Positions 6,104-61,239 of a stretch of DNA of 64,000 nt are shown piece after piece. The position numbers and the translations under genes were made by a program. Every line of letters starts with the position of its first letter. Position 1 is the first letter of the stretch. The notes beneath the pieces are model-generated. The model worked only from the letters and a program-made list of their open reading frames with translations, was not told the DNA's origin and made no database searches. The stretch is from Polaromonas sp. (GTDB taxonomy: Bacteria > Pseudomonadota > Gammaproteobacteria > Burkholderiales > Burkholderiaceae_C), in contig JANPIC010000133.1 in the NCBI GenBank assembly GCA_031424795.1, forward strand, positions 12,634 to 76,633, given 5' to 3'.

Positions 6104-8251
6104 TTACTTAGCGCGAACGGTGCGAGCCTTGGCCATATCACGCGGCACAAACACTTTGCCGCCATTGCCTGGCTTGGCAGCTGGTTTAGCAAACGTTGGT
6201 TTGGCGAAGCCAGGCTTAGCGAATGCTGGTTTACGGTCAGCAAAGTCGCCACGTGGAGCGAAGTCACCGCGAGGGGCGAAATCTTTACGCGGGGCGAAGT
6301 CGCCGCGCTCAGCACGGTCACCACGAGGCGCAAAATCACCACGTGGAGCGAAGTCTTTACGAGGAGCGAAGTCACCACGTGGGGCAAATTCTTTACGTGG
6401 CGCAAAGTCACCGCGAGGTGCGAAATCGCCGCGAGGAGCTGAATCACCGCGTGGAGGAAAGCCACCGCCGCTATTGCGGTCGTTGAAACCACCTTTGCGA
6501 ACATAGCTGTCTGGTGCGCGAGCGTTGTCAGAAGGGCGTCCAGCGAAACGATCACCGAAACGGTCGCCCTGCGGAGCAGCGAAACCACCGCCTTGAGGCG
6601 CGCGGTCAGCGAAGCCTCCACGGTCACCACCAAAGTTACCACCGCCACCGAAACCGCCTTGGCGAGGTGCAAACTTTCGGTCACGGCCAGCGCCGCCGCC
6701 ATGTCCACGGTCGCCACCAAAACCACCGCGGTCTGGGCCGCCGAAGTTACCAGGGCGTGACTCAGGGAAACGTTGTTTTGGCTCTAAGCCAGGAATGACC
6801 TCTGCTTTGAATGGGGTGCGTGTGAACTGCTCGATGTCCATGATACGGCGACGGTCTCGGATTTCAGCAAAGCTGACAGCGATACCGTCACGGCCAGCAC
6901 GACCTGTACGACCAATACGATGGGTGTAATCCTCGGCTTTCATTGGCAGGCCAAAGTTGAACACGTGGCTGATCGATGGCACGTCAATACCGCGTGCTGC
7001 CACGTCGGTTGCCACCAAAATTTGAACTTGACCTTCGCGCAAAGCTTGCAAGCGGCGGTTACGGATACCTTGGTTCAAAGCGCCGTGCAAAGCAACCGCG
7101 CTGAAACCTTCTTGTTGCAGGTCGTTGGCCAAACCGTCGCACTCGATCTGGGTGCTGGCAAACACGATGGCTTGCTTGATGTTGGTGTCGCGCAACCAGT
7201 GGTCGAGCAACTTGCGTTTGTGCTGAGAATTGTCAGCCCAGAACAACGATTGCTTGATGTTTTGGTGCTTGTCTTGCGGGCTGTCGATGGTGATGCGCTG
7301 TGGCTCACGCATCACACGGCCAGCGAGCTGCTGGATGCGTGGTGCAAACGTGGCGCTGAACATCATGGTTTGTTGGCGGCCGCTGGTCAACTGGTTGACT
7401 TCTGCGAGATCGTCTGAGAAGCCCAAATCGAGCATACGGTCGGCTTCGTCAACGACCAAGAATTTCACTTTGTCGAGCTTCAACTGGTGTGAACGCTGCA
7501 AGTCAAGCAAACGGCCTGGGGTTGCCACCACCAAGTTAGCGTTTTGCAACTTGGCCAATTGCAACTGGTAAGGCATACCCCCCACCACGTTGGCAATGCG
7601 CAAACCTTTGCAGTAGCGCACCAAATCAATCGCGTCGTTGGCAACTTGTTGTGCCAATTCGCGGGTCGGGCAAAGAATCAAAGCGCCTGGCGTGGCCGGT
7701 GTGAAATTGCGGAAATTGGTCGGGTCTTTGCGTTTAGCGCGTTTTGGAGGCGCATCGCCACGGGCTTCGGCTTCAGCGCATGCTGCTTCAAACTCAGCGC
7801 GTTCGGCAGCTGCTTCTTGTTCTTGCTGTTTCAGCAAGGTGTGGATCACAGGCAGCAAAAAGGCGGCAGTTTTACCTGAACCGGTTTGGCTGGACACCAT
7901 CAAGTCAATAAATTTCTTCGGTGTGCCGTCAACAGCATCCGCTGGCAAAGCCAATGGAATTGTTTTCATCTGCACGGTGGTGGGTTGTGTGAAACCCATT
8001 TCTTTCGTCGCTTGAATCAGCTCATCAGCCAAGCCAAGTGCGATAAAGCCGTTTGGCAATTTGGCAGCTTCTTCCGCGGCCAAAGCTTTGGCTGCGGCCA
8101 CTTCATCTACTGCATTTTCAGTAGCAATTGAAGCAGTAAATTCGCCGGCTATGGCAGTATTTAATGTTAATTCGTTGTCGGTCTGAGATTCAAAAGTCGT
8201 TGTCATAGAGTCGGTCATACATAGCCGCCACCAATTTCGGTGCGGTTCCAT
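6104..8251 (-). CDS. DEAD-box ATP-dependent RNA helicase (RhlE-like) with a long repetitive RGG/PRGDFA C-terminal tail
   Basis: Motifs SQTGSGKT, PTRELA, VVDEADRMLD, SAT and HRIGRTGRAG. The real start is probably the ATG at 8218 or 8206. Confidence 0.9.
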   Translation of the reverse strand: MEPHRNWWRLCMTDSMTTTFESQTDNELTLNTAIAGEFTASIATENAVDEVAAAKALAAEEAAKLPNGFIALGLADELIQATKEMGFTQPTTVQMKTIPLALPADAVDGTPKKFIDLMVSSQTGSGKTAAFLLPVIHTLLKQQEQEAAAERAEFEAACAEAEARGDAPPKRAKRKDPTNFRNFTPATPGALILCPTRELAQQVANDAIDLVRYCKGLRIANVVGGMPYQLQLAKLQNANLVVATPGRLLDLQRSHQLKLDKVKFLVVDEADRMLDLGFSDDLAEVNQLTSGRQQTMMFSATFAPRIQQLAGRVMREPQRITIDSPQDKHQNIKQSLFWADNSQHKRKLLDHWLRDTNIKQAIVFASTQIECDGLANDLQQEGFSAVALHGALNQGIRNRRLQALREGQVQILVATDVAARGIDVPSISHVFNFGLPMKAEDYTHRIGRTGRAGRDGIAVSFAEIRDRRRIMDIEQFTRTPFKAEVIPGLEPKQRFPESRPGNFGGPDRGGFGGDRGHGGGAGRDRKFAPRQGGFGGGGNFGGDRGGFADRAPQGGGFAAPQGDRFGDRFAGRPSDNARAPDSYVRKGGFNDRNSGGGFPPRGDSAPRGDFAPRGDFAPRKEFAPRGDFAPRKDFAPRGDFAPRGDRAERGDFAPRKDFAPRGDFAPRGDFADRKPAFAKPGFAKPTFAKPAAKPGNGGKVFVPRDMAKARTVRAK
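6240..6455 (-). repeat. Tandem 18-bp repeat, 12 units, coding (hexapeptide PRGDFA-like) within the DEAD-box helicase tail
   Basis: Units read by hand: gcaaagtcgccacgtgga, gcgaagtcaccgcgaggg, gcgaaatctttacgcggg ... gctgaatcaccgcgtgga. They are contiguous and in phase. Confidence 0.9.
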
Positions 8252-31094: not shown

Positions 31095-32369
31095 ATGGTA
31101 AATACTCCGCCGCTGGCAGAGCGGATGCGCCCCACCAAGCTGTCTGAAGTCATTGGGCAGCAGCATATTTTGGGCGAAGGCATGGCGTTGCGCATTGCTT
31201 TTGAGTCTGGACAGCCACACAGCTGCATTCTTTGGGGGCCGCCTGGGGTGGGGAAGACGACGATCGCGCGGTTGATGGCGAATGCATTTGATGCGCAATT
31301 CATCACCATCAGTGCGACTTTGGGTGGTGTCAAAGACATTCGGGAAGCGGTTGAGCAAGCACTCATTTGGCAAGGTCAAGGCAAACGAACCATCGTGTTT
31401 GTGGACGAAGTACACCGCTTTAACAAAGCGCAGCAAGATGCGTTTTTGCCGCATGTGGAAAGCGGTTTATTGACCTTTATTGGCGCGACGACTGAGAACC
31501 CGTCGTTTGAAGTCAACTCCGCTTTGTTGTCCCGCGCTGCTGTTTACGTGTTGCAACCACTATCACCTGCTAATTTAGAGGAAATTATTGCTCTAGCCAG
31601 CGTATTTTCTGTCTCAATAGCTATAGATAAAGTAGCAATTGACAAATTGGTGGCGTATGCAGATGGTGATGCGAGACGCTTGCTCAACACGTTAGAGAAT
31701 CTCTACATCGCCGCTGAAAAGGAAAAGATAACGACGATCACGGATGCTTGGCTCACCCAAGTGTTAGGCGAGCGCATGCGCCGCTACGACAAAGGCGGCG
31801 AGCAGTTTTACGACACCATCAGCGCTTTGCACAAAAGCGTGCGTGGCTCAGACCCTGATGCGTCGTTGTACTGGTTTGTTCGCATGTTGGATGGTGGGGC
31901 AGACCCGCGCTACATGGCGCGCCGGCTGGTTCGCATGGCCAGTGAAGACATTGGTTTGGCGGATCCGCGTGCGCTATCCATGGCGCTAGATGCTGCCAAC
32001 ACCTACGAACGACTGGGTTCGCCCGAAGGCGAGTTGGCATTGGCGCAATGTGTGATTTATCTGGCAGTTGCTCCTAAGTCAAACGCGGTTTACAAAGCCT
32101 TCAACGCCGTCAAAGCGCACATCAAAAAAGACGGTACGCGACCTGTGCCCATGCATTTGCGCAATGCACCGACCAAGTTGATGAAAGAGCTGGACTATGG
32201 CAAAGGCTACCGTTATGCACATGACGAAGCCGACGGATTTGCCGCTGGCGAGCAATATTTACCAGATGGCATGAAAGATGCTTTGTTCTATGAACCTGTA
32301 GAACGCGGTTTGGAAATCAAGATTGCAGATAAGTTGCGGACGCTGAAAAAATTAAACGCAAGAAATTAA
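31095..32369 (+). CDS. rarA: Replication-associated recombination protein A (AAA+)
   Basis: LAERMRP...GPPGVGKTT, the VDEVHRFNKAQQD motif and a C-terminal MgsA domain. Confidence 0.9.
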   Translation: MVNTPPLAERMRPTKLSEVIGQQHILGEGMALRIAFESGQPHSCILWGPPGVGKTTIARLMANAFDAQFITISATLGGVKDIREAVEQALIWQGQGKRTIVFVDEVHRFNKAQQDAFLPHVESGLLTFIGATTENPSFEVNSALLSRAAVYVLQPLSPANLEEIIALASVFSVSIAIDKVAIDKLVAYADGDARRLLNTLENLYIAAEKEKITTITDAWLTQVLGERMRRYDKGGEQFYDTISALHKSVRGSDPDASLYWFVRMLDGGADPRYMARRLVRMASEDIGLADPRALSMALDAANTYERLGSPEGELALAQCVIYLAVAPKSNAVYKAFNAVKAHIKKDGTRPVPMHLRNAPTKLMKELDYGKGYRYAHDEADGFAAGEQYLPDGMKDALFYEPVERGLEIKIADKLRTLKKLNARN

Positions 32370-55708: not shown

Positions 55709-57025
55709 ATGACATTATTCACCGCACTCGCGCCAGCCACCTCGCTCACTGTATCTTCTGCCATGCCGACGCAGGACATAGCGCAATGGTTTGCCCAGTT
55801 AGCCACACCAAAATCGCTGCTTGAGCTGGCCGTGCTGGCGCTCTGTGCGGCCTTGGCCTGGGGCTTGCTGTGGCTGATGCGGCGCAGTTTGGCGCATGTG
55901 GACGACAAATCCATTCTGTTTGGCAAGCGCCTGGTGGATGGCGTGCTGTTCCCTTTGTTGCTGTTGTGTTTGGCCTTTGTGGCGCGCGTGGTCTTGCTGC
56001 GCACCATGGAGGTGCATGTGCTGCACATTGCGATACCTGTTTTGCTCGCCTTGGTTGTCATCCGCGTGGGTGTCAAGGTGCTGCAGGTCGCTTTTAAAAA
56101 ATCGCCACTGGTGCGGTTTTTAGAGCGCACTATTTCTTGGGTGGTCTGGCTGGCGCTGGTGTTGTGGATCAGCGGTTTGCTGCCCTTGGTGCTGCAAGAA
56201 ATGGAACAGATTACCTGGCAGGTTGGCGACAGCGCACTGTCTTTGCGCACCATGCTGGATGGCGCACTGACCGCTGGAGCGGTGCTGTTGTTGGCTTTGT
56301 GGGTCGCATCGGCGGTGGAATCCAAGCTGCTGCGCCACGCCAGCGGTGGTGAGCTGTCGCTGCGCAAAGCCGCCAGCAACGCGGTGCGGGCGGTGTTGAT
56401 TTTTGTGAGCCTGTTGTTGTCGCTCAGCATCGTTGGTATTGATTTGACCGCGCTGTCCGTTCTAGGCGGTGCTGTTGGTGTGGGTATTGGCTTGGGGCTG
56501 CAAAAACTGGCGTCCAACTACGTCAGCGGCTTCGTCATCCTGACCGAGCGCAGCATGCGCATTGGTGACTATGTGCGGGTTGACAGCTTTGAAGGCCGCA
56601 TCACCGACATCAAAACCCGCTACACCGTCATCCGCTCAGGCAGCGGGCGTGAATCCATCGTCCCTAACGAAATGCTGGTCACCAACCGCGTTGAAAATTT
56701 GACCCTCAGCGACACCCTGATAGCGCAGCAAACATTGGTGTCCGTGGGCTACGCCAGCGACGTCGCGCTGGTCCGACGCCTGCTGGTAGAAGCCGCGCTG
56801 GGACAAAGCCGCGTCATGGCTGAACCCGCGCCCATTTCAGCTTTGACGGCCTTTGGCGCAAATGGTCTGGAATTTACCTTGAATTACTGGATCACCGATC
56901 CCGAAAATGGCCAGCTCAACATCCGCTCAGACGTCAACGTCGCCATCTTGACCCACTTGCGCAGCCATAGCATCGACATCCCGTACCCGCAGCAGGTGGT
57001 GCATGACGCGAAACCACGGGTTTAG
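55709..57025 (+). CDS. MscS-family mechanosensitive ion channel protein
   Basis: Several TM helices, then the LASNYVSGFVILTERSMRIGDYV beta-domain signature. Confidence 0.85.
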   Translation: MTLFTALAPATSLTVSSAMPTQDIAQWFAQLATPKSLLELAVLALCAALAWGLLWLMRRSLAHVDDKSILFGKRLVDGVLFPLLLLCLAFVARVVLLRTMEVHVLHIAIPVLLALVVIRVGVKVLQVAFKKSPLVRFLERTISWVVWLALVLWISGLLPLVLQEMEQITWQVGDSALSLRTMLDGALTAGAVLLLALWVASAVESKLLRHASGGELSLRKAASNAVRAVLIFVSLLLSLSIVGIDLTALSVLGGAVGVGIGLGLQKLASNYVSGFVILTERSMRIGDYVRVDSFEGRITDIKTRYTVIRSGSGRESIVPNEMLVTNRVENLTLSDTLIAQQTLVSVGYASDVALVRRLLVEAALGQSRVMAEPAPISALTAFGANGLEFTLNYWITDPENGQLNIRSDVNVAILTHLRSHSIDIPYPQQVVHDAKPRV

Positions 57026-57053
57026 CTCGGGGGGCCTCGTTTTAAGCAGACGT

Positions 57054-57090
57054 AAAAAAAACCACCAAATCTTTCGATTGGTGGTTTAGT
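57054..57090 (+). terminator. Probable terminator after the MscS-family gene
   Basis: aaaaaaaaccaccaaatc-tttc-gattggtggttt (one bulge). Confidence 0.5.
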
Positions 57091-57134
57091 TGCTTAACTT
57101 TTAACAGTTTGGCTTGCTAGCTGACAGCGCACCC

Positions 57135-57166
57135 AACAAAACGGCGAACTACAAATTTGCAGTTCG
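57135..57166 (-). terminator. Possible terminator after rpsT
   Basis: CGAACT-ACAAATTTGC-AGTTCG hairpin, followed on the minus strand by a T-rich tract (GTTTTGTT). Confidence 0.35.
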
Positions 57167-57186
57167 GGCGATTTGCTTAAATTGAA

Positions 57187-57489
57187 TTAAGCAGCGGCCA
57201 AGACCAGAGTCTTGACTTTGGTAGACAAACGGCTCTTATCGCGCGCTGCCTTGTTTTTGTGGAAGATGCCTTTGTCAGCCACGGTGTCAACCACAGCTTG
57301 CATCTTCGCAAAAGCTTCAGTTGCTTTTGCTTTGTCGCCAGCGATAACGGCTTTTTCGACGTTTTTCACAGCGGTACGGTATTTAGAGCGCAAAGAAGTG
57401 TTTGCAGCATTGATTTTGACGTCTTGGCGTACGCGCTTACGGCCAGAGGCTAGACGAGGGTTTTTCTTTTTTGGTTTGGCTGATGCCAT
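57187..57489 (-). CDS. rpsT: 30S ribosomal protein S20
   Basis: [39 protein letters not shown]. Confidence 0.95.
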
Positions 57490-57526
57490 GATTTATGTTC
57501 CTTAAATGTATGTGGATGATGTCAGC

Positions 57527-57546
57527 TAAGCCTATGATTCTAGCAT
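57527..57546 (-). promoter_or_regulatory. Putative rpsT promoter
   Basis: The minus strand reads GCTAGAATCATAGGCTTAG. Confidence 0.45.
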
Positions 57547-57619
57547 TTTTGAGGACTCCAGTCCACGCATTGCTGGGCTTAGATGGCTGCGAGGCTTTTG
57601 AAATAGCGCTAAAATGGAT

Positions 57620-57635
57620 GTATTACATGTAATAC
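57620..57635 (+). promoter_or_regulatory. 16-bp perfect palindrome, candidate operator of the toxin-antitoxin operon
   Basis: GTATTACATGTAATAC lies immediately upstream of the AGGAG Shine-Dalgarno of the RHH antitoxin gene. Confidence 0.5.
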
Positions 57636-57647
57636 AGGAGTTCTGAC

Positions 57648-57884
57648 ATGTCCAGTTCCGTGATGACCATCCGCTTATCCCAAGACGATACAGTCAGATT
57701 GGCAAATTTGTCTGAAAAAACGCACCGCCCCAAATCTTTTTACATCAAAGAGGCACTTGCTCGCTATTTCGAAGATATGGAAGATCTTTATTTAGCCGAA
57801 AGCGCTATGGCTCGCATCCGCTCAGGGGAAGAGCGTACTTACACCTTAGACGAAGTAGAGGCCAAGCTTGGTTTGGCGGGTTGA
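57648..57884 (+). CDS. Type II antitoxin, ribbon-helix-helix (CopG/RelB/ParD-like)
   Basis: 78 aa. RHH N-terminus (MTIRLSQDDTVRLANLSEKTHRPKSFYIKEALARYF). Overlaps the downstream RelE/ParE gene by 17 nt. Confidence 0.8.
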   Translation: MSSSVMTIRLSQDDTVRLANLSEKTHRPKSFYIKEALARYFEDMEDLYLAESAMARIRSGEERTYTLDEVEAKLGLAG

Positions 57885-58137
57885 GCTGTCGGAGACGGCG
57901 CTTAAAAACCTCTCCAAGCTCGACAAACCAGTAGCACTACGAATTCGTAATTTTCTTCGCGACAGGCTGTCCGCATTAGACGACCCGCGCAGCATAGGCG
58001 AGGCACTTAAAGGCGCAAAGCTGGGTGATTTGTGGAAATACCGAGTCGGCGATTATCGTGCCATAGCCAGCATCGAAGACGGCAAAGTCGTCATCTTGGT
58101 TTTAGCAATTGGAAATCGTAAAGAAGTTTATCGTTGA
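57868..58137 (+). CDS. Type II toxin, RelE/ParE superfamily
   Basis: 89 aa. LKNLSKLDKPVALRI...LWKYRVGDYRAIASIEDGKVVILVLAIGNRKEVY is the canonical RelE/StbE pattern. TTG start. Confidence 0.85.
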   Translation: MVWRVELSETALKNLSKLDKPVALRIRNFLRDRLSALDDPRSIGEALKGAKLGDLWKYRVGDYRAIASIEDGKVVILVLAIGNRKEVYR

Positions 58138-58145
58138 GGCTAAGT

Positions 58146-58198
58146 TTTGCTATATTTAAAATAGCACTTTAGGCAATAAATACGCCGGCTAGAGGTGT
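58146..58198 (+). repeat. Dispersed repeat, copy J (forward), 8 nt after the relE/parE stop; left border of the low-GC cassette
   Basis: ttttgctatatttaaaatagcactttaggcaataaatacgccggctagaggtg. Shares an identical 29-nt core with copy K. Confidence 0.9.
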
Positions 58199-58243
58199 AA
58201 ATGAGGAATAAATTAGAGGTTTTATGCACTAATCTTGCATTTA

Positions 58244-58582
58244 TCAAACTTCATTTTCAAGTAACTCAGTCGCTTGAGCCAATTTTTCATTTTTGCAATA
58301 CTCGGCATAGTTTTTGCCGAATTCTTTTTTATACCAAGATCCGACAATATAGCGGCTTAAGAAATAGCTAACTCTTTGCAAAAAAATAAAGACTGGAAAG
58401 ACAATTAATATTACAAATAGCATTTCTATGCTAAGTGAATTCCATGCTATGTCACGATACCAGCGTATTGCACCCAATACAGACGTCAAAAAAAATGTAC
58501 TGTTAAGTACAATTCTCTGCATGCGTAAATTTGCATTTCGGAACTTGAAAAACTCTAATTTTTTAATTTCATCCATTTGCAC
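58244..58582 (-). CDS. Hypothetical small membrane protein (two predicted TM helices), low-GC cassette
   Basis: Hydrophobic segments IVLNSTFFLTSVLGAI and MLFVILIVFPVFIFL with a charged C-terminal tail. The likely start is ATG 58576 (AGG upstream). I recognise no family. Confidence 0.6.
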   Translation of the reverse strand: MQMDEIKKLEFFKFRNANLRMQRIVLNSTFFLTSVLGAIRWYRDIAWNSLSIEMLFVILIVFPVFIFLQRVSYFLSRYIVGSWYKKEFGKNYAEYCKNEKLAQATELLENEV

Positions 58583-58723
58583 AAACCTTATTTTTATTTA
58601 CATTTAAAACTTGAAAATATTTTTTAAACTTATGAGTGAATAATGCATTTTAGTTCTAAATAAAATAGAATTTTAGATAATAAATGCGATTGCCAAAAAC
58701 ATAAGTTATATGAAAATATGGAT

Positions 58724-59374
58724 TTAAGATTTGTCGAAACTTTGAAATTTTTCGATAAGTTCAATAATTCGTTTGGCTTGGGCTGCATACTGTTTGTAGC
58801 AGCCTTCAATATTATCAACGACCAAGCTATGGTTGCCGTTTTCTAGCTTCTGGAATGTGAGATTGTTGTAGTACTTTGCACGTTCAACAGTTTCGGCGTT
58901 GAAATCGAGGGCGCTTCGGATTTCTAGCAATGCTCTTTGAGTATCCGTGTCGAAGCTCCATATTGCGGAAACCCTAGCATCCAAAAGTGGGGTTCCGTAT
59001 TTTTGCAAAGTAAGGCTCTTTCCAGCTGGAGCTTTCTTGCTGAGGAAGAATTGATTCAATTGCTCGTCTGTAGCATGAAGGTATGGTTTAAGTACTGAGC
59101 AGATCTTCTGCGCATCAGTGTCAGCAGTTTCAGTGCTTAGGTGCTTAATAAGCCATTTGAGGCTTTGCCTAGTCATTGTGCCTTGGTGCTCTTCAATGGT
59201 ATAGCTACAAAGCGCTAATTTAATCTTTAGAGAGGAAAGTTCTGATCTAATTGCTTCTCGACCAAGCTTGTTTTCTCGGAGCCGCTTTATTTCATCTACG
59301 ACTATCGGGGCTAATAGACCTAGTAGCCATCCCAAGAGCAAAAGTGCAAGCTTCTCCATGGTTTCCTTAAGCAT
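58724..59374 (-). CDS. Hypothetical protein with one N-terminal TM helix and a ~185-aa helical domain, low-GC cassette
   Basis: LALLLLGWLLGLLAPIVV anchor. The likely start is ATG 59359, preceded by AAGGA. I recognise no catalytic or family motif. Confidence 0.65.
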   Translation of the reverse strand: MLKETMEKLALLLLGWLLGLLAPIVVDEIKRLRENKLGREAIRSELSSLKIKLALCSYTIEEHQGTMTRQSLKWLIKHLSTETADTDAQKICSVLKPYLHATDEQLNQFFLSKKAPAGKSLTLQKYGTPLLDARVSAIWSFDTDTQRALLEIRSALDFNAETVERAKYYNNLTFQKLENGNHSLVVDNIEGCYKQYAAQAKRIIELIEKFQSFDKS

Positions 59375-59508
59375 TTTGTTCGAAAAGGTCTAGAAGTAAT
59401 TAGTATTGCAAAAGTTGCAAAAATTTCTTAGAGAGTAATGCAATATAACTTAAATTTCACGAAAACAGCATCAAATTTAGTCAAATTTCACTGTTAAATT
59501 ATTTAATC

Positions 59509-59568
59509 TGCTATAAATAAAATAGCGCTTTAGGCAATAAATACGCCGGCTAGAGGCATATTTAAAGG
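59509..59568 (+). repeat. Dispersed repeat, copy K (forward), right border of the low-GC cassette, upstream of murJ
   Basis: ctgctataaataaaatagcgctttaggcaataaatacgccggctagaggcatatttaaagg. Confidence 0.9.
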
Positions 59569-59667
59569 CTAAAATGGGACAAATCAGCCATAAATCCACA
59601 AAAACAAGCCAAATCTACCTTTAAACGGCTTCCGTAGCTCCGAATTAAGCCGCTAAACTCAATCCCC

Positions 59668-61239
59668 ATGTCCCTGCTCAAATCCGCCTCCGTCATCTCG
59701 CTGCTCACGCTGGTATCCCGCATCACAGGTATGGTGCGTGACCAGTTGATGGCGGCTATGTTTGGGGCTTCGGCTATGACGGATGCGTTTAACGTGGCGT
59801 TTCGGCTGCCGAATATGTTCAGGCGGCTGTTTGCGGAAGGGGCGTTTAGCCAGGCGTTTGTGCCTGTTTTGGGGGCGAGCAAGGTTAAAAACGGGGACGA
59901 GGCGACCAAGGTGTTGGTTGATCGTGTCGCCACCGTGCTGTTTTGGGTGTTGGTGCTCACTTGCGTGATTGGCGTAGCCGCTGCGCCTGCGCTGGTGTGG
60001 GTGATGGCCAGCGGGCTGCAGCAAAACCAGCAGGGGTTTGACGCTGCGGTGTTCATGGCGCGGTGGATGTTTCCTTACATTGGGTTCATGTCGCTGGTGG
60101 CGCTGGGCGCGGGGGTGCTGAACACCTACAGACGCTTTGCCGTGCCTGCCGTGACGCCTGTTTTGCTGAATATGGCGATGATTTTGGCGGCTTGGCTGGG
60201 TGCACCGTGGTTCAAAAGCATGGGGATTCAGCCGATTTACGCGATGTCTATGGGTGTTATTGGTGGTGGCGTGTTGCAGTTGGTGATGCAGTGGCTGGCG
60301 CTGCGCAAAATTGGCATGTTGCCGAAAATTCGCGCCAATTGGGCGGAAGTGAAGGCGGCTTGGGCGGATGCGGGCGTTAAAAACGTGGCTAAATTGATGC
60401 TGCCAGCGCTTCTCGGCGTGGGGGTGGCGCATATTTCGGCGATTATCAACCTGCAGATCGCCTCGCATTTAACGCCCGGCAGTGTCAGCTGGATGAGCTA
60501 CGCCGAGCGGTTGATGGAGTTTCCCACCGCCATGCTGGGCGTTGCGCTGGGCGTGGTGCTGACGCCGCGCTTGGTGGCGGCCAAGGCCAGCGGTGACGAC
60601 GCCACCTATTCCGCCATGATTGACTGGGGGCTGCGGCTGGTGATCTTGCTGGCTGTGCCTTGTACCGTGGCGTTGCTGCTGTTTGCCAAGCCGCTGGTGG
60701 CGACTTTGTTCCATTACGGCGTGTTTTCAAGCAACGATGTGCAGCAGGTGACCACGCCTTTGATGGGCTACGGCGTCGGTTTGATTGGTTTGGTCGCTAT
60801 CAAAATATTGGCGCCCGGGTTTTACGCCAGCCAAGACATCAAAACCCCAGTCAAAATCGCCATTGCTGTGCTCATCATCACCCAGCTGCTGAATATCGCA
60901 CTGGTGCCGCTGTTTGCGCACGCGGGGCTGGCGCTGGCGATTGGCTTGGGTGCGTTGATCAACGCGCTGTGGCTGCTGATTGGTTTGATCAAGCGTGGCA
61001 GCTACCAGCCGTTGCCGGGGTGGGGTAAATTCATCGCCCAAGTCGTCATTGCCAGCGCCTTATTAGGGGTCTGGTTGTGGTGGAGCGCGGGTTATGTTGA
61101 TTGGGTTGCGCTAAAAAGTGACGTTTTTAAGAGAATAATGCTTCTAGCCGGCGCATTAATTGCCTCTGCAGCTATTTATTTTATAGCATTGATGGTTGCT
61201 GGTGTGAAAATCAAGACTTTGCTGCGGGGTCAAGGCTAG
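59668..61239 (+). CDS. murJ: Lipid II flippase MurJ (MviN)
   Basis: MSLLKSASVISLLTLVSRITGMVRDQLMAAMFGAS...FRLPNMFRRLFAEGAFSQAFVP. Confidence 0.95.
   Translation: MSLLKSASVISLLTLVSRITGMVRDQLMAAMFGASAMTDAFNVAFRLPNMFRRLFAEGAFSQAFVPVLGASKVKNGDEATKVLVDRVATVLFWVLVLTCVIGVAAAPALVWVMASGLQQNQQGFDAAVFMARWMFPYIGFMSLVALGAGVLNTYRRFAVPAVTPVLLNMAMILAAWLGAPWFKSMGIQPIYAMSMGVIGGGVLQLVMQWLALRKIGMLPKIRANWAEVKAAWADAGVKNVAKLMLPALLGVGVAHISAIINLQIASHLTPGSVSWMSYAERLMEFPTAMLGVALGVVLTPRLVAAKASGDDATYSAMIDWGLRLVILLAVPCTVALLLFAKPLVATLFHYGVFSSNDVQQVTTPLMGYGVGLIGLVAIKILAPGFYASQDIKTPVKIAIAVLIITQLLNIALVPLFAHAGLALAIGLGALINALWLLIGLIKRGSYQPLPGWGKFIAQVVIASALLGVWLWWSAGYVDWVALKSDVFKRIMLLAGALIASAAIYFIALMVAGVKIKTLLRGQG
61141..61190 (-). 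repeat. Dispersed repeat, copy L (reverse), in-frame in the last TM region of MurJ
   Basis: cttctagccggcgcattaattgcctctgcagctatttattttatagcatt. Confidence 0.75.

Follow-up and report, generated by a model that had tools for sequence, protein, structure and literature searches.

Repetitive extragenic palindromic (REP)-like repeats are usually regarded as selfish or regulatory filler, and REP copies act as sites of chromosomal rearrangement. To our knowledge, no direct REP arrays delimiting accessory cassettes have been described, nor do we know of Rickettsia palindromic elements (RPEs) that serve as cassette boundaries. The present analysis concerns a REP-like or RPE-like repeat, with a core of 57 nt and a length of about 85 nt when a weaker 3' extension is included, and its copies in a 64,000-nt stretch of DNA (the window) from Polaromonas sp. 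(assembly GCA_031424795.1, contig JANPIC010000133.1, positions 12,634 to 76,633). Two of these copies, J and K, border a low-GC insert between rpsT, coding for ribosomal protein S20, and murJ. They are ordinary members of a family of about 580 copies that marks the joints of swappable accessory cassettes and, together with a decayed copy (J') lying between them, represent three copies in the same orientation of a repeat that is dispersed genus-wide. The best explanation, to which a probability of roughly 0.55 is assigned, is a repeat-mediated turnover of cassettes at J, J', K, and their kin.

A first group of related systems consists of the REP sequences, their inverted doublets (REPINs), and the REP-associated tyrosine transposases (RAYTs). 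The present family is likewise short, high-copy, lineage-specific, vertically persistent, and hairpin-forming, and it is accompanied by a low-copy Y1 transposase gene (two here, of which one is conserved) with copies beside it (PMC3116915, PMC3337134, PMC5581495, PMC3733652). A conserved RAYT-like gene flanked by copies of the repeat was found on contig C77. However, the palindromic unit of REP sequences carries a GTAG or CGTC tag (PMC3733652), whereas the reverse-strand consensus here is CTAGCCGGCG, with CTAG instead and GTAG in some copies, this position being low in information. Moreover, the stem is only 5-6 bp long and AT-rich (GCTAT/ATAGC). In contrast to REPINs, in which the doublet of two inverted REPs is the replicating unit (PMC3116915), the copies are mostly singletons, and neighbours less than 500 nt apart are direct in 13 cases and inverted in three. 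Also different from REP sequences is that 265 of the approximately 580 copies (about 45%) lie within called open reading frames (ORFs), as judged by crude ORF calls. A second group, the RPEs, shares with this family its occurrence both between genes and, translated in-frame, within genes (PutA, DnaX, RibD, and MurJ); 220 of the 265 ORF-internal copies use just two frames. The sequence and the host are, however, unrelated to those of the RPEs, the element is shorter (57 nt, equalling 19 codons), and the copy in PutA appears to match native residues rather than to be a clean 19-residue insert.

Thirdly, the minimal mobile elements of Neisseria (PMC3787668, PMC3082526) are alternative cassettes that occupy the same site between core genes and are exchanged presumably by homologous recombination. 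Alternative cassettes were found here at rpsT-murJ, ppsA-ppsR, and ABC exporter-gdhA, but with a dispersed repeat at most joints and with one copy retained by the empty alleles. Fourthly, IS200/IS605 elements and their non-autonomous derivatives resemble the case of genome G007, in which a Y1 transposase gene lies between two direct hairpin ends, and the cargo cassettes are placed likewise. Precise excision of such elements leaves no copy, whereas the empty sites here keep one, and no strand bias was seen. Lastly, integron arrays, and clusters of attC sites without integrase, also have one repeat per cassette, all direct, with small orphan genes and toxin-antitoxin (TA) genes as cargo. They differ in that the genome under study has no IntI, in that the repeat lacks attC architecture, and in that its copies are dispersed and found inside genes too.

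The rpsT-murJ junction can be read as a stack of cassettes in the order ParDE and J, c112 and J', c216 and K, followed by murJ. Its left anchor, rpsT (57187..57489, minus strand; Pfam Ribosomal_S20p, E 4e-25), is 84-97% identical at the nucleotide level to its congeneric counterparts and 73-76% to those of other genera of the family, and its right anchor is murJ (59668..61239, plus strand; Pfam MurJ, E 5e-121). Next to rpsT, a ParD-like ribbon-helix-helix (RHH) antitoxin (57648-57884, plus strand; Pfam DUF6290/RHH) and a ParE toxin (57868-58137, plus strand; Pfam ParE_toxin) form the ParDE TA module (57648..58137), which behaves as a cassette whose end is repeat J (58145-58203, or 58145..58232 with a 3' extension of about 30 nt, GTGTAAATGAGGAATAAATTAGAGGTTTTA; plus strand; 62.7 bits with model R1). 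It is followed by c112 (58244..58582, minus strand), an ORF coding for a small predicted membrane protein of no family; by J' (58649-58688, or 58649..58715 as a whole feature; plus strand; 13.6 bits, E 1.5e-4 in a 2.3-kb search); by c216 (58724..59374, minus strand), of no known family and with an N-terminal hydrophobic stretch as seen by eye; and by K (59505-59565, or to 59590 with an extension that enters the conserved murJ leader; plus strand; 65.3 bits). J' aligns colinearly with J and K in the same orientation and, because this decayed copy splits c112 from c216, the insert is made up of two single-gene cassettes with three repeats and not of one cassette with two. The extension of J is common to the corresponding copy of G007 and to two copies (r1 and r2) of G006, where it precedes differing cassettes, and it also occurs on a copy on contig C42 of the same genome as the window.

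An earlier note on this DNA had described J and K as direct copies sharing a 29-nt core and a preceding string, with AT-rich DNA exactly between them, and these observations hold. Exact matches to the 29-mer CTTTAGGCAATAAATACGCCGGCTAGAGG lie at 58167-58195 and 59528-59556, each on the plus strand, with zero occurrences expected from shuffles. In both copies, this string follows AAAATAGC and a single base that varies (A in J, G in K). The GC content is 0.24-0.46 between J and K versus 0.55-0.65 in the flanking genes.

Genome-wide, the family has the 57-nt consensus TTTGCTATAAATTTAATAGCTGTTTAGGCAATAAATACGCCGGCTAGAGGCATATTT and 581 nhmmer matches (289 on the plus strand and 292 on the minus strand), or one copy per 4.8 kb, in the 2.78-Mb metagenome-assembled genome (MAG) to which the window belongs (G000; 201 contigs, 89.6% complete); contig C133 holds 20 of them, 19 within the window. 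The 29-mer equals the consensus at 28 of 29 positions and occurs three times in the genome in its exact form, while the 28-nt consensus core occurs six times. J and K are identical at 47-49 of 57 positions, and each has a closer relative elsewhere, namely a C176 copy for J (54/57) and a C106 copy for K (53/57). A recent mutual duplication is thus rejected, and the shared 29-mer simply reflects two near-consensus copies. Information content drops beyond the 57 nt, except for a weak TAAAT near +63 to +69. The sole recurrent structure is a 5-6-bp hairpin, GCTAT-N7-ATAGC, which adjoins a conserved, single-stranded-looking tail. A structured RNA was rejected, as RNAalifold returned only a 4-pair helix (-0.38 kcal/mol) and an Rfam scan of positions 57000-60000 gave no match. 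Similarly, a promoter or terminator reading was rejected, since consensus scans for either returned sites no more numerous than in shuffles. The family is abundant in all 18 congeneric genomes searched and was absent from the other genera of the family that were searched; the host belongs to a clade of small-genome Polaromonas-like bacteria known mostly from MAGs.

Comparison of the rpsT-murJ junction among relatives carries most of the argument for turnover at the repeat. G015 has a gap of about 70 nt, without TA module and without repeat. G010 has the same TA module as the window, followed by one repeat and the murJ leader, with no cassette; G013 resembles it, except that its TA module is an internally deleted remnant. 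These two genomes represent the cassette-less allele with a single repeat copy that the earlier note had proposed to look for. In G007, the TA module, J, and its extension precede a different cassette of about 640 bp, which is followed by K, and in G006 an ABC (ATP-binding cassette) operon is followed by r1, a cassette, r2, a cassette X that is the one of G007, and K, all copies being direct. G016 has a diverged TA module and two copies 610 bp apart, which are J-like (J') and K-like, with other DNA between them, and G018 has about 2.3 kb with four or five accessory genes and K only. The ParDE module is thereby present in G010, G007, and G016, reduced to a remnant in G013, and absent from G015.

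The single copies combine flanks of J and K. That of G010 matches J in its left flank and T-rich hairpin loop and matches K in its right end (GAGGCATATTTAAGGGCTAAAATGG...) and flank, and that of G013, beside the TA remnant, has the same J-left/K-right flanks. This right flank, common to the single copies in G010 and G013, also borders K-type copies in G007, G016, G006, G003, and G018. There is thus good support, both from G010 and G013 and from the swaps in G007, G006, and G016, for cassettes being gained or lost at a repeat copy or through one. The earlier note, which had suggested entry of the cassette at a resident copy, or duplication of that copy, is thereby partly supported; its limits include that J and K are not mutual duplicates and that insertion and deletion are not separable on the murJ tree. 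In a broader form its geometric idea holds, in that direct copies mark joints and cassette-less alleles keep one. The turnover is fast, as the murJ tree of nine close genomes is a star in which G003 and G013 are sisters, and these sister species differ greatly at rpsT-murJ.

Two further hotspots display a similar arrangement. Between ppsA and ppsR, the genome of the window (C51:9387-10505) contains three direct copies that alternate with a RidA gene and an orphan gene (206 aa, GC 0.32), whereas G016 has the orphan between two copies, G018 has one copy and RidA, and G015, G007, G010, and G008 have a single copy and no cassette. In most genomes, three, two, and one copies hence go with two, one, and zero cassettes. 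Between an ABC exporter gene and gdhA (C34:2139-5561), four direct copies separate a DUF6988 gene plus a TA module (BrnT-like/CopG) and a DUF1801 gene plus a membrane protein gene, and congeners carry mosaics of these cassettes. On the exporter side, the distal end of the first copy, R_a, is where homology stops in 13 matches to congeners (query 378-385), and on the gdhA side it restarts about 20-30 nt past R_c, with most matches excluding R_c. In G002, G012, and G017, the ABC exporter-gdhA cassette block adjoins rpsT.

Altogether, 12 runs of at least three direct copies occur in the genome. The cargo of the sampled runs (DUF6988, CopG antitoxin, DUF1801, RlaP nucleotidyltransferase, MerR, YdeI, and orphan lipoproteins or membrane proteins) is typical accessory material. 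An array on contig C42 (C42:1783-2750) has three direct copies among a major facilitator superfamily transporter gene, a truncated-haemoglobin-like gene, a 271-nt spacer, and a putative DNA methyltransferase-like gene, the latter label having been given by eye without a score. Since the truncated-haemoglobin-like gene has a normal GC content, arrays are not confined to low-GC cargo.

Metagenome contigs with homologues of c112 and c216 indicate what is transferred. In locus L143, murJ (95% identical to that of the window) is followed by K, c216, J', c112, an 82-residue antitoxin-like gene, and rpsT, and the same c216-J'-c112 block of L143-L145 contains the 93% homologue of c112. The orthologues of J' score 20.7 bits in L143-L145 and 19.8 bits in L146, of which the contig starts inside c216. 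In L134, an 80% homologue of c216 lies between two direct copies of 60.4 and 31.7 bits, the latter at the position of J'. Nucleotide identity with the window is about 86% across K, the 5' untranslated region, and c216, the downstream repeat is identical at family level only (about 60%, by eye), and HigBA then stands in place of c112. Because L134 keeps the K-c216 block while HigBA replaces c112, the conserved transferable unit is a gene plus one repeat copy, with the neighbouring units varying by strain.

Neither c112 nor c216 matched a Pfam family or a PADLOC model, and a defence-system identity of both was rejected on that ground. Only five homologues of c112 were found. Those of c216 numbered 57, of which 54 are hypothetical or unnamed and three carry a stray label; the clustered homologues begin at Met6 (211 aa). 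A 60% homologue of c112 on contigs of the Joint Genome Institute (JGI), L147-L149, lies directly downstream of a TIR-TM protein gene (PADLOC TIR-TM, E 4e-75), within a cluster of four genes on one strand that might encode a defence system. Other JGI contigs (L120/L121/L123) hold a 69% homologue of c216 in a classical integron with an IntI of 349 aa, cassettes coding for BrnT/BrnA and YoeB/YefM, and attC cores of the form GCCTAAC...GTTAGGC, so that c216 is a cassette-type gene elsewhere too. The Logan contigs with c216 homologues (L134-L138 and L139-L142) begin about 198 or 105 nt upstream of the gene, those of L134-L138 inside a repeat copy and those of L139-L142 about 105 nt upstream of the gene. 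This suggests that the repeat family routinely breaks short-read assemblies, and accessory content beside the repeat may be under-recovered as a consequence.

According to the favoured explanation, repeat copies would be the sites at which cassettes are gained, lost, and exchanged. Loss would occur when two direct copies recombine, removing one cassette and one repeat and leaving a single hybrid copy. Gain would start from DNA that brings a cassette with its own repeat copy, be it circular or a fragment acquired from a relative, and that is joined to a resident copy, resulting in N+1 direct copies for N cassettes. By default, RecA-type recombination on 29-57 nt of identity could perform these reactions, and a RAYT-like Y1 transposase is a candidate. 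We infer, rather than show, a mechanistic part for the repeat beyond its position at the joints, and likewise the direction of each event and the enzyme (RecA or Y1).

Several observations weigh against repeat-mediated turnover. First, the repeat is so dense (one copy per 4.8 kb, with 69 direct pairs of neighbours at most 1.5 kb apart) that bracketing is expected anyway and is by itself not evidence. The objection that the earlier note had raised to its own proposal, namely that repeat density might make such bracketing a matter of chance, is hence justified. Second, the joint rule is not strict, because of the exceptions L143 and G018. The former has J' and K but no J, its homology to the window stopping at the c112 stop codon; the latter holds 2.3 kb of cargo at rpsT-murJ with only K, and its RidA gene at ppsA-ppsR leaves insufficient space for a second copy. 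Third, the star shape of the murJ tree prevents a separation of gain from loss. Fourth, as J and K are not nearest relatives and the copies of G010 and G013 carry substitutions of their own, no recent event is visible. Lastly, many copies lie in-frame in conserved genes. Those checked (PutA and murJ) proved old and orthologous, so that the majority of copies are not active joints.

The genic copies deserve some elaboration here. By the same crude calls, 175 copies lie deep inside ORFs (more than 200 nt from the 5' end and more than 120 nt from the 3' end), in frame. The two frames in use, reading ..AINnIAxQAINTPARG.. or ..MPLAGVFIAxTAIKNIA.., are the only ones with a single consensus stop, and this stop is mutated in the genic copies. 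Examples are the genes for PutA (two copies), DnaX, RibD, an ABC exporter, an LD-carboxypeptidase, EarP, and MurJ. One PutA copy (C9:6301-6357; loci L025-L036) occupies the same site in nine of nine aligned genomes spanning the genus, with in-frame length changes within its 3' half. In alignments to solved structures of PutA and RibD, the residues encoded by the repeat fall opposite native ones, the net difference in PutA being about five residues. The murJ copy lies on the opposite strand at the 3' end of the gene (61134-61190, 46 bits) and is conserved across the clade, its hairpin part being kept even in Polaromonas jejuensis. Further examples of ORF-internal copies in the window are located at 1213-1269, 1573-1629, 8106-8162, and 31583-31639.

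Alternatively, the repeat may be bystander punctuation, an explanation that is considered unlikely but that accounts for part of the data. In that case it would be a common intergenic element (a 3'-end, terminator-like, or nucleoid-protein site) present in about a fifth to a quarter of intergenic gaps. Cassettes would arrive by unrelated routes, for instance by illegitimate recombination or, following the uptake of DNA, by allelic replacement via the flanking core genes. They would be flanked by copies because copies are ubiquitous or because every gene brings a copy of its own along. Such a role agrees with the approximately 580 copies and their 69 close direct pairs, with the cargo of L143 and G018 that lacks a second copy, and with the contrast between G003 and G013, which fits general hotspot turnover. 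The placement of the repeat also suits a 3'-end element, as copies are enriched in convergent gaps (111 for 171 gaps) and depleted in divergent ones (31 for 258), counts that are based on crude, longest-ORF gene calls.

A bystander role leaves the orientation of neighbouring copies unexplained. Among 414 adjacent pairs, 98 lie within 1.5 kb, of which the 69 mentioned are direct. Direct pairs exceed inverted ones by 13 to 3 below 500 nt (p 0.021) and by 31 to 12 at 500-1000 nt (p 0.0054), or 44 to 15 below 1 kb, as against a non-significant 60 to 57 beyond 5 kb, so that orientation is non-random at short range only. A replication-strand bias was rejected as the cause, since the excess is gone beyond 5 kb, and coupling to gene direction is weak (85 versus 65 in co-directional gaps, with the same gene calls). 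The DNA bracketed by direct pairs has a GC content of 0.46-0.52 versus 0.53-0.55 for inverted pairs. Bystander punctuation accounts neither for the J-left/K-right single copies nor for the match between the numbers of repeats and cassettes at ppsA-ppsR.

More doubtful is a particular version of repeat-mediated turnover, in which the enzyme is named. The 57-nt repeat would be the recognition site of a domesticated Y1 (HUH), RAYT-like transposase, which would cut neighbouring direct copies at the same position on one strand and join them, releasing a single-stranded circle of a cassette and one copy that re-enters at any other copy; genes between copies would so become mobile cassettes. Two Y1_Tnp (IS200-like, RAYT-like) genes are indeed present in the genome. 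The first (C77:17159-17818, minus strand), matched in 15 of 18 congeners, lies between two high-scoring direct copies (C77:17053-18490). The second (C26:2326-3192), the paralogue on which Pfam Y1_Tnp was scored, has a helix-turn-helix tail, is not conserved, and adjoins earP. In seven of nine genus genomes examined, a copy is located 41-69 nt past the stop of the C77-type gene, always on the opposite strand, and in G007 two direct copies closely enclose this gene, in the manner of the left and right ends of an IS200/IS605 element. The direct orientation within arrays is what a strand-specific enzyme would impose, and the conserved 5-6-bp hairpin beside a single-stranded-looking tail is in line with such an enzyme. 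On the other hand, the transposase-downstream copy is orthologous across the genus and therefore counts as one ancestral event, and orthologues of the C77 transposase exist in genera that lack the repeat family. Furthermore, there is no long-range orientation bias as expected from lagging-strand targeting, the consensus tag is CTAG and not GTAG or CGTC (PMC3733652), and inverted doublets (REPINs) are depleted instead of enriched. The link between this transposase and the repeat is a lead, not a proof. If true, it would amount to a genome-wide, integron-like cassette system in which a REP-type repeat takes the place of attC, and an HUH enzyme that of a tyrosine recombinase.

A reading of J, J', and K as attC-like sites on which an integron integrase acts is highly improbable and was rejected, notwithstanding the array-like geometry of one direct repeat per cassette, the c216 homologue in a true integron, and the presence of integrases in congeners, as the genome has no IntI, the repeat has no attC architecture, and the attC sites of a congener are unrelated to it. 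A search of the genome (89.6% complete) with the IntI of L120 returned only partial matches to Xer-like tyrosine recombinases (E about 1e-16, covering the C-terminal 55-65 residues or so). Among the congeners, IntI is full-length in G014 (C357), cut by a contig end in G013 (C32), and disrupted in G011 (C96) and G003 (several contigs). The attC sites of the integron remnant in G011, about 70 nt long, are canonical (GCCYAAC...GTTAGGC), and model R1 found no copy of the 57-nt repeat in the G011 array and none in L120. Conversely, no pair of attC cores R'' (RYYYAAC) and R' (GTTRRRY) is present in the repeat. Folded as single-stranded DNA, J and K do no better than shuffles on three of their four strands (z between -1.3 and +0.1), the K plus strand giving z = -2.1, with 7 of 200 shuffles folding as well. 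In addition, the approximately 580 sites are dispersed over 201 contigs, many inside genes, and are uniform in orientation only in local arrays.

In this small-genome clade, one repeat family thus lies at most cassette joints in several hotspots flanked by essential genes. Should the repeat be a participant in the exchange, as repeat-mediated turnover supposes, TA modules and orphan membrane proteins could be shuffled in a simple and distributed way that needs neither an integron nor a conventional mobile element. Such a role, if true, would also provide a concrete and testable job for the conserved, otherwise puzzling RAYT-type transposases.

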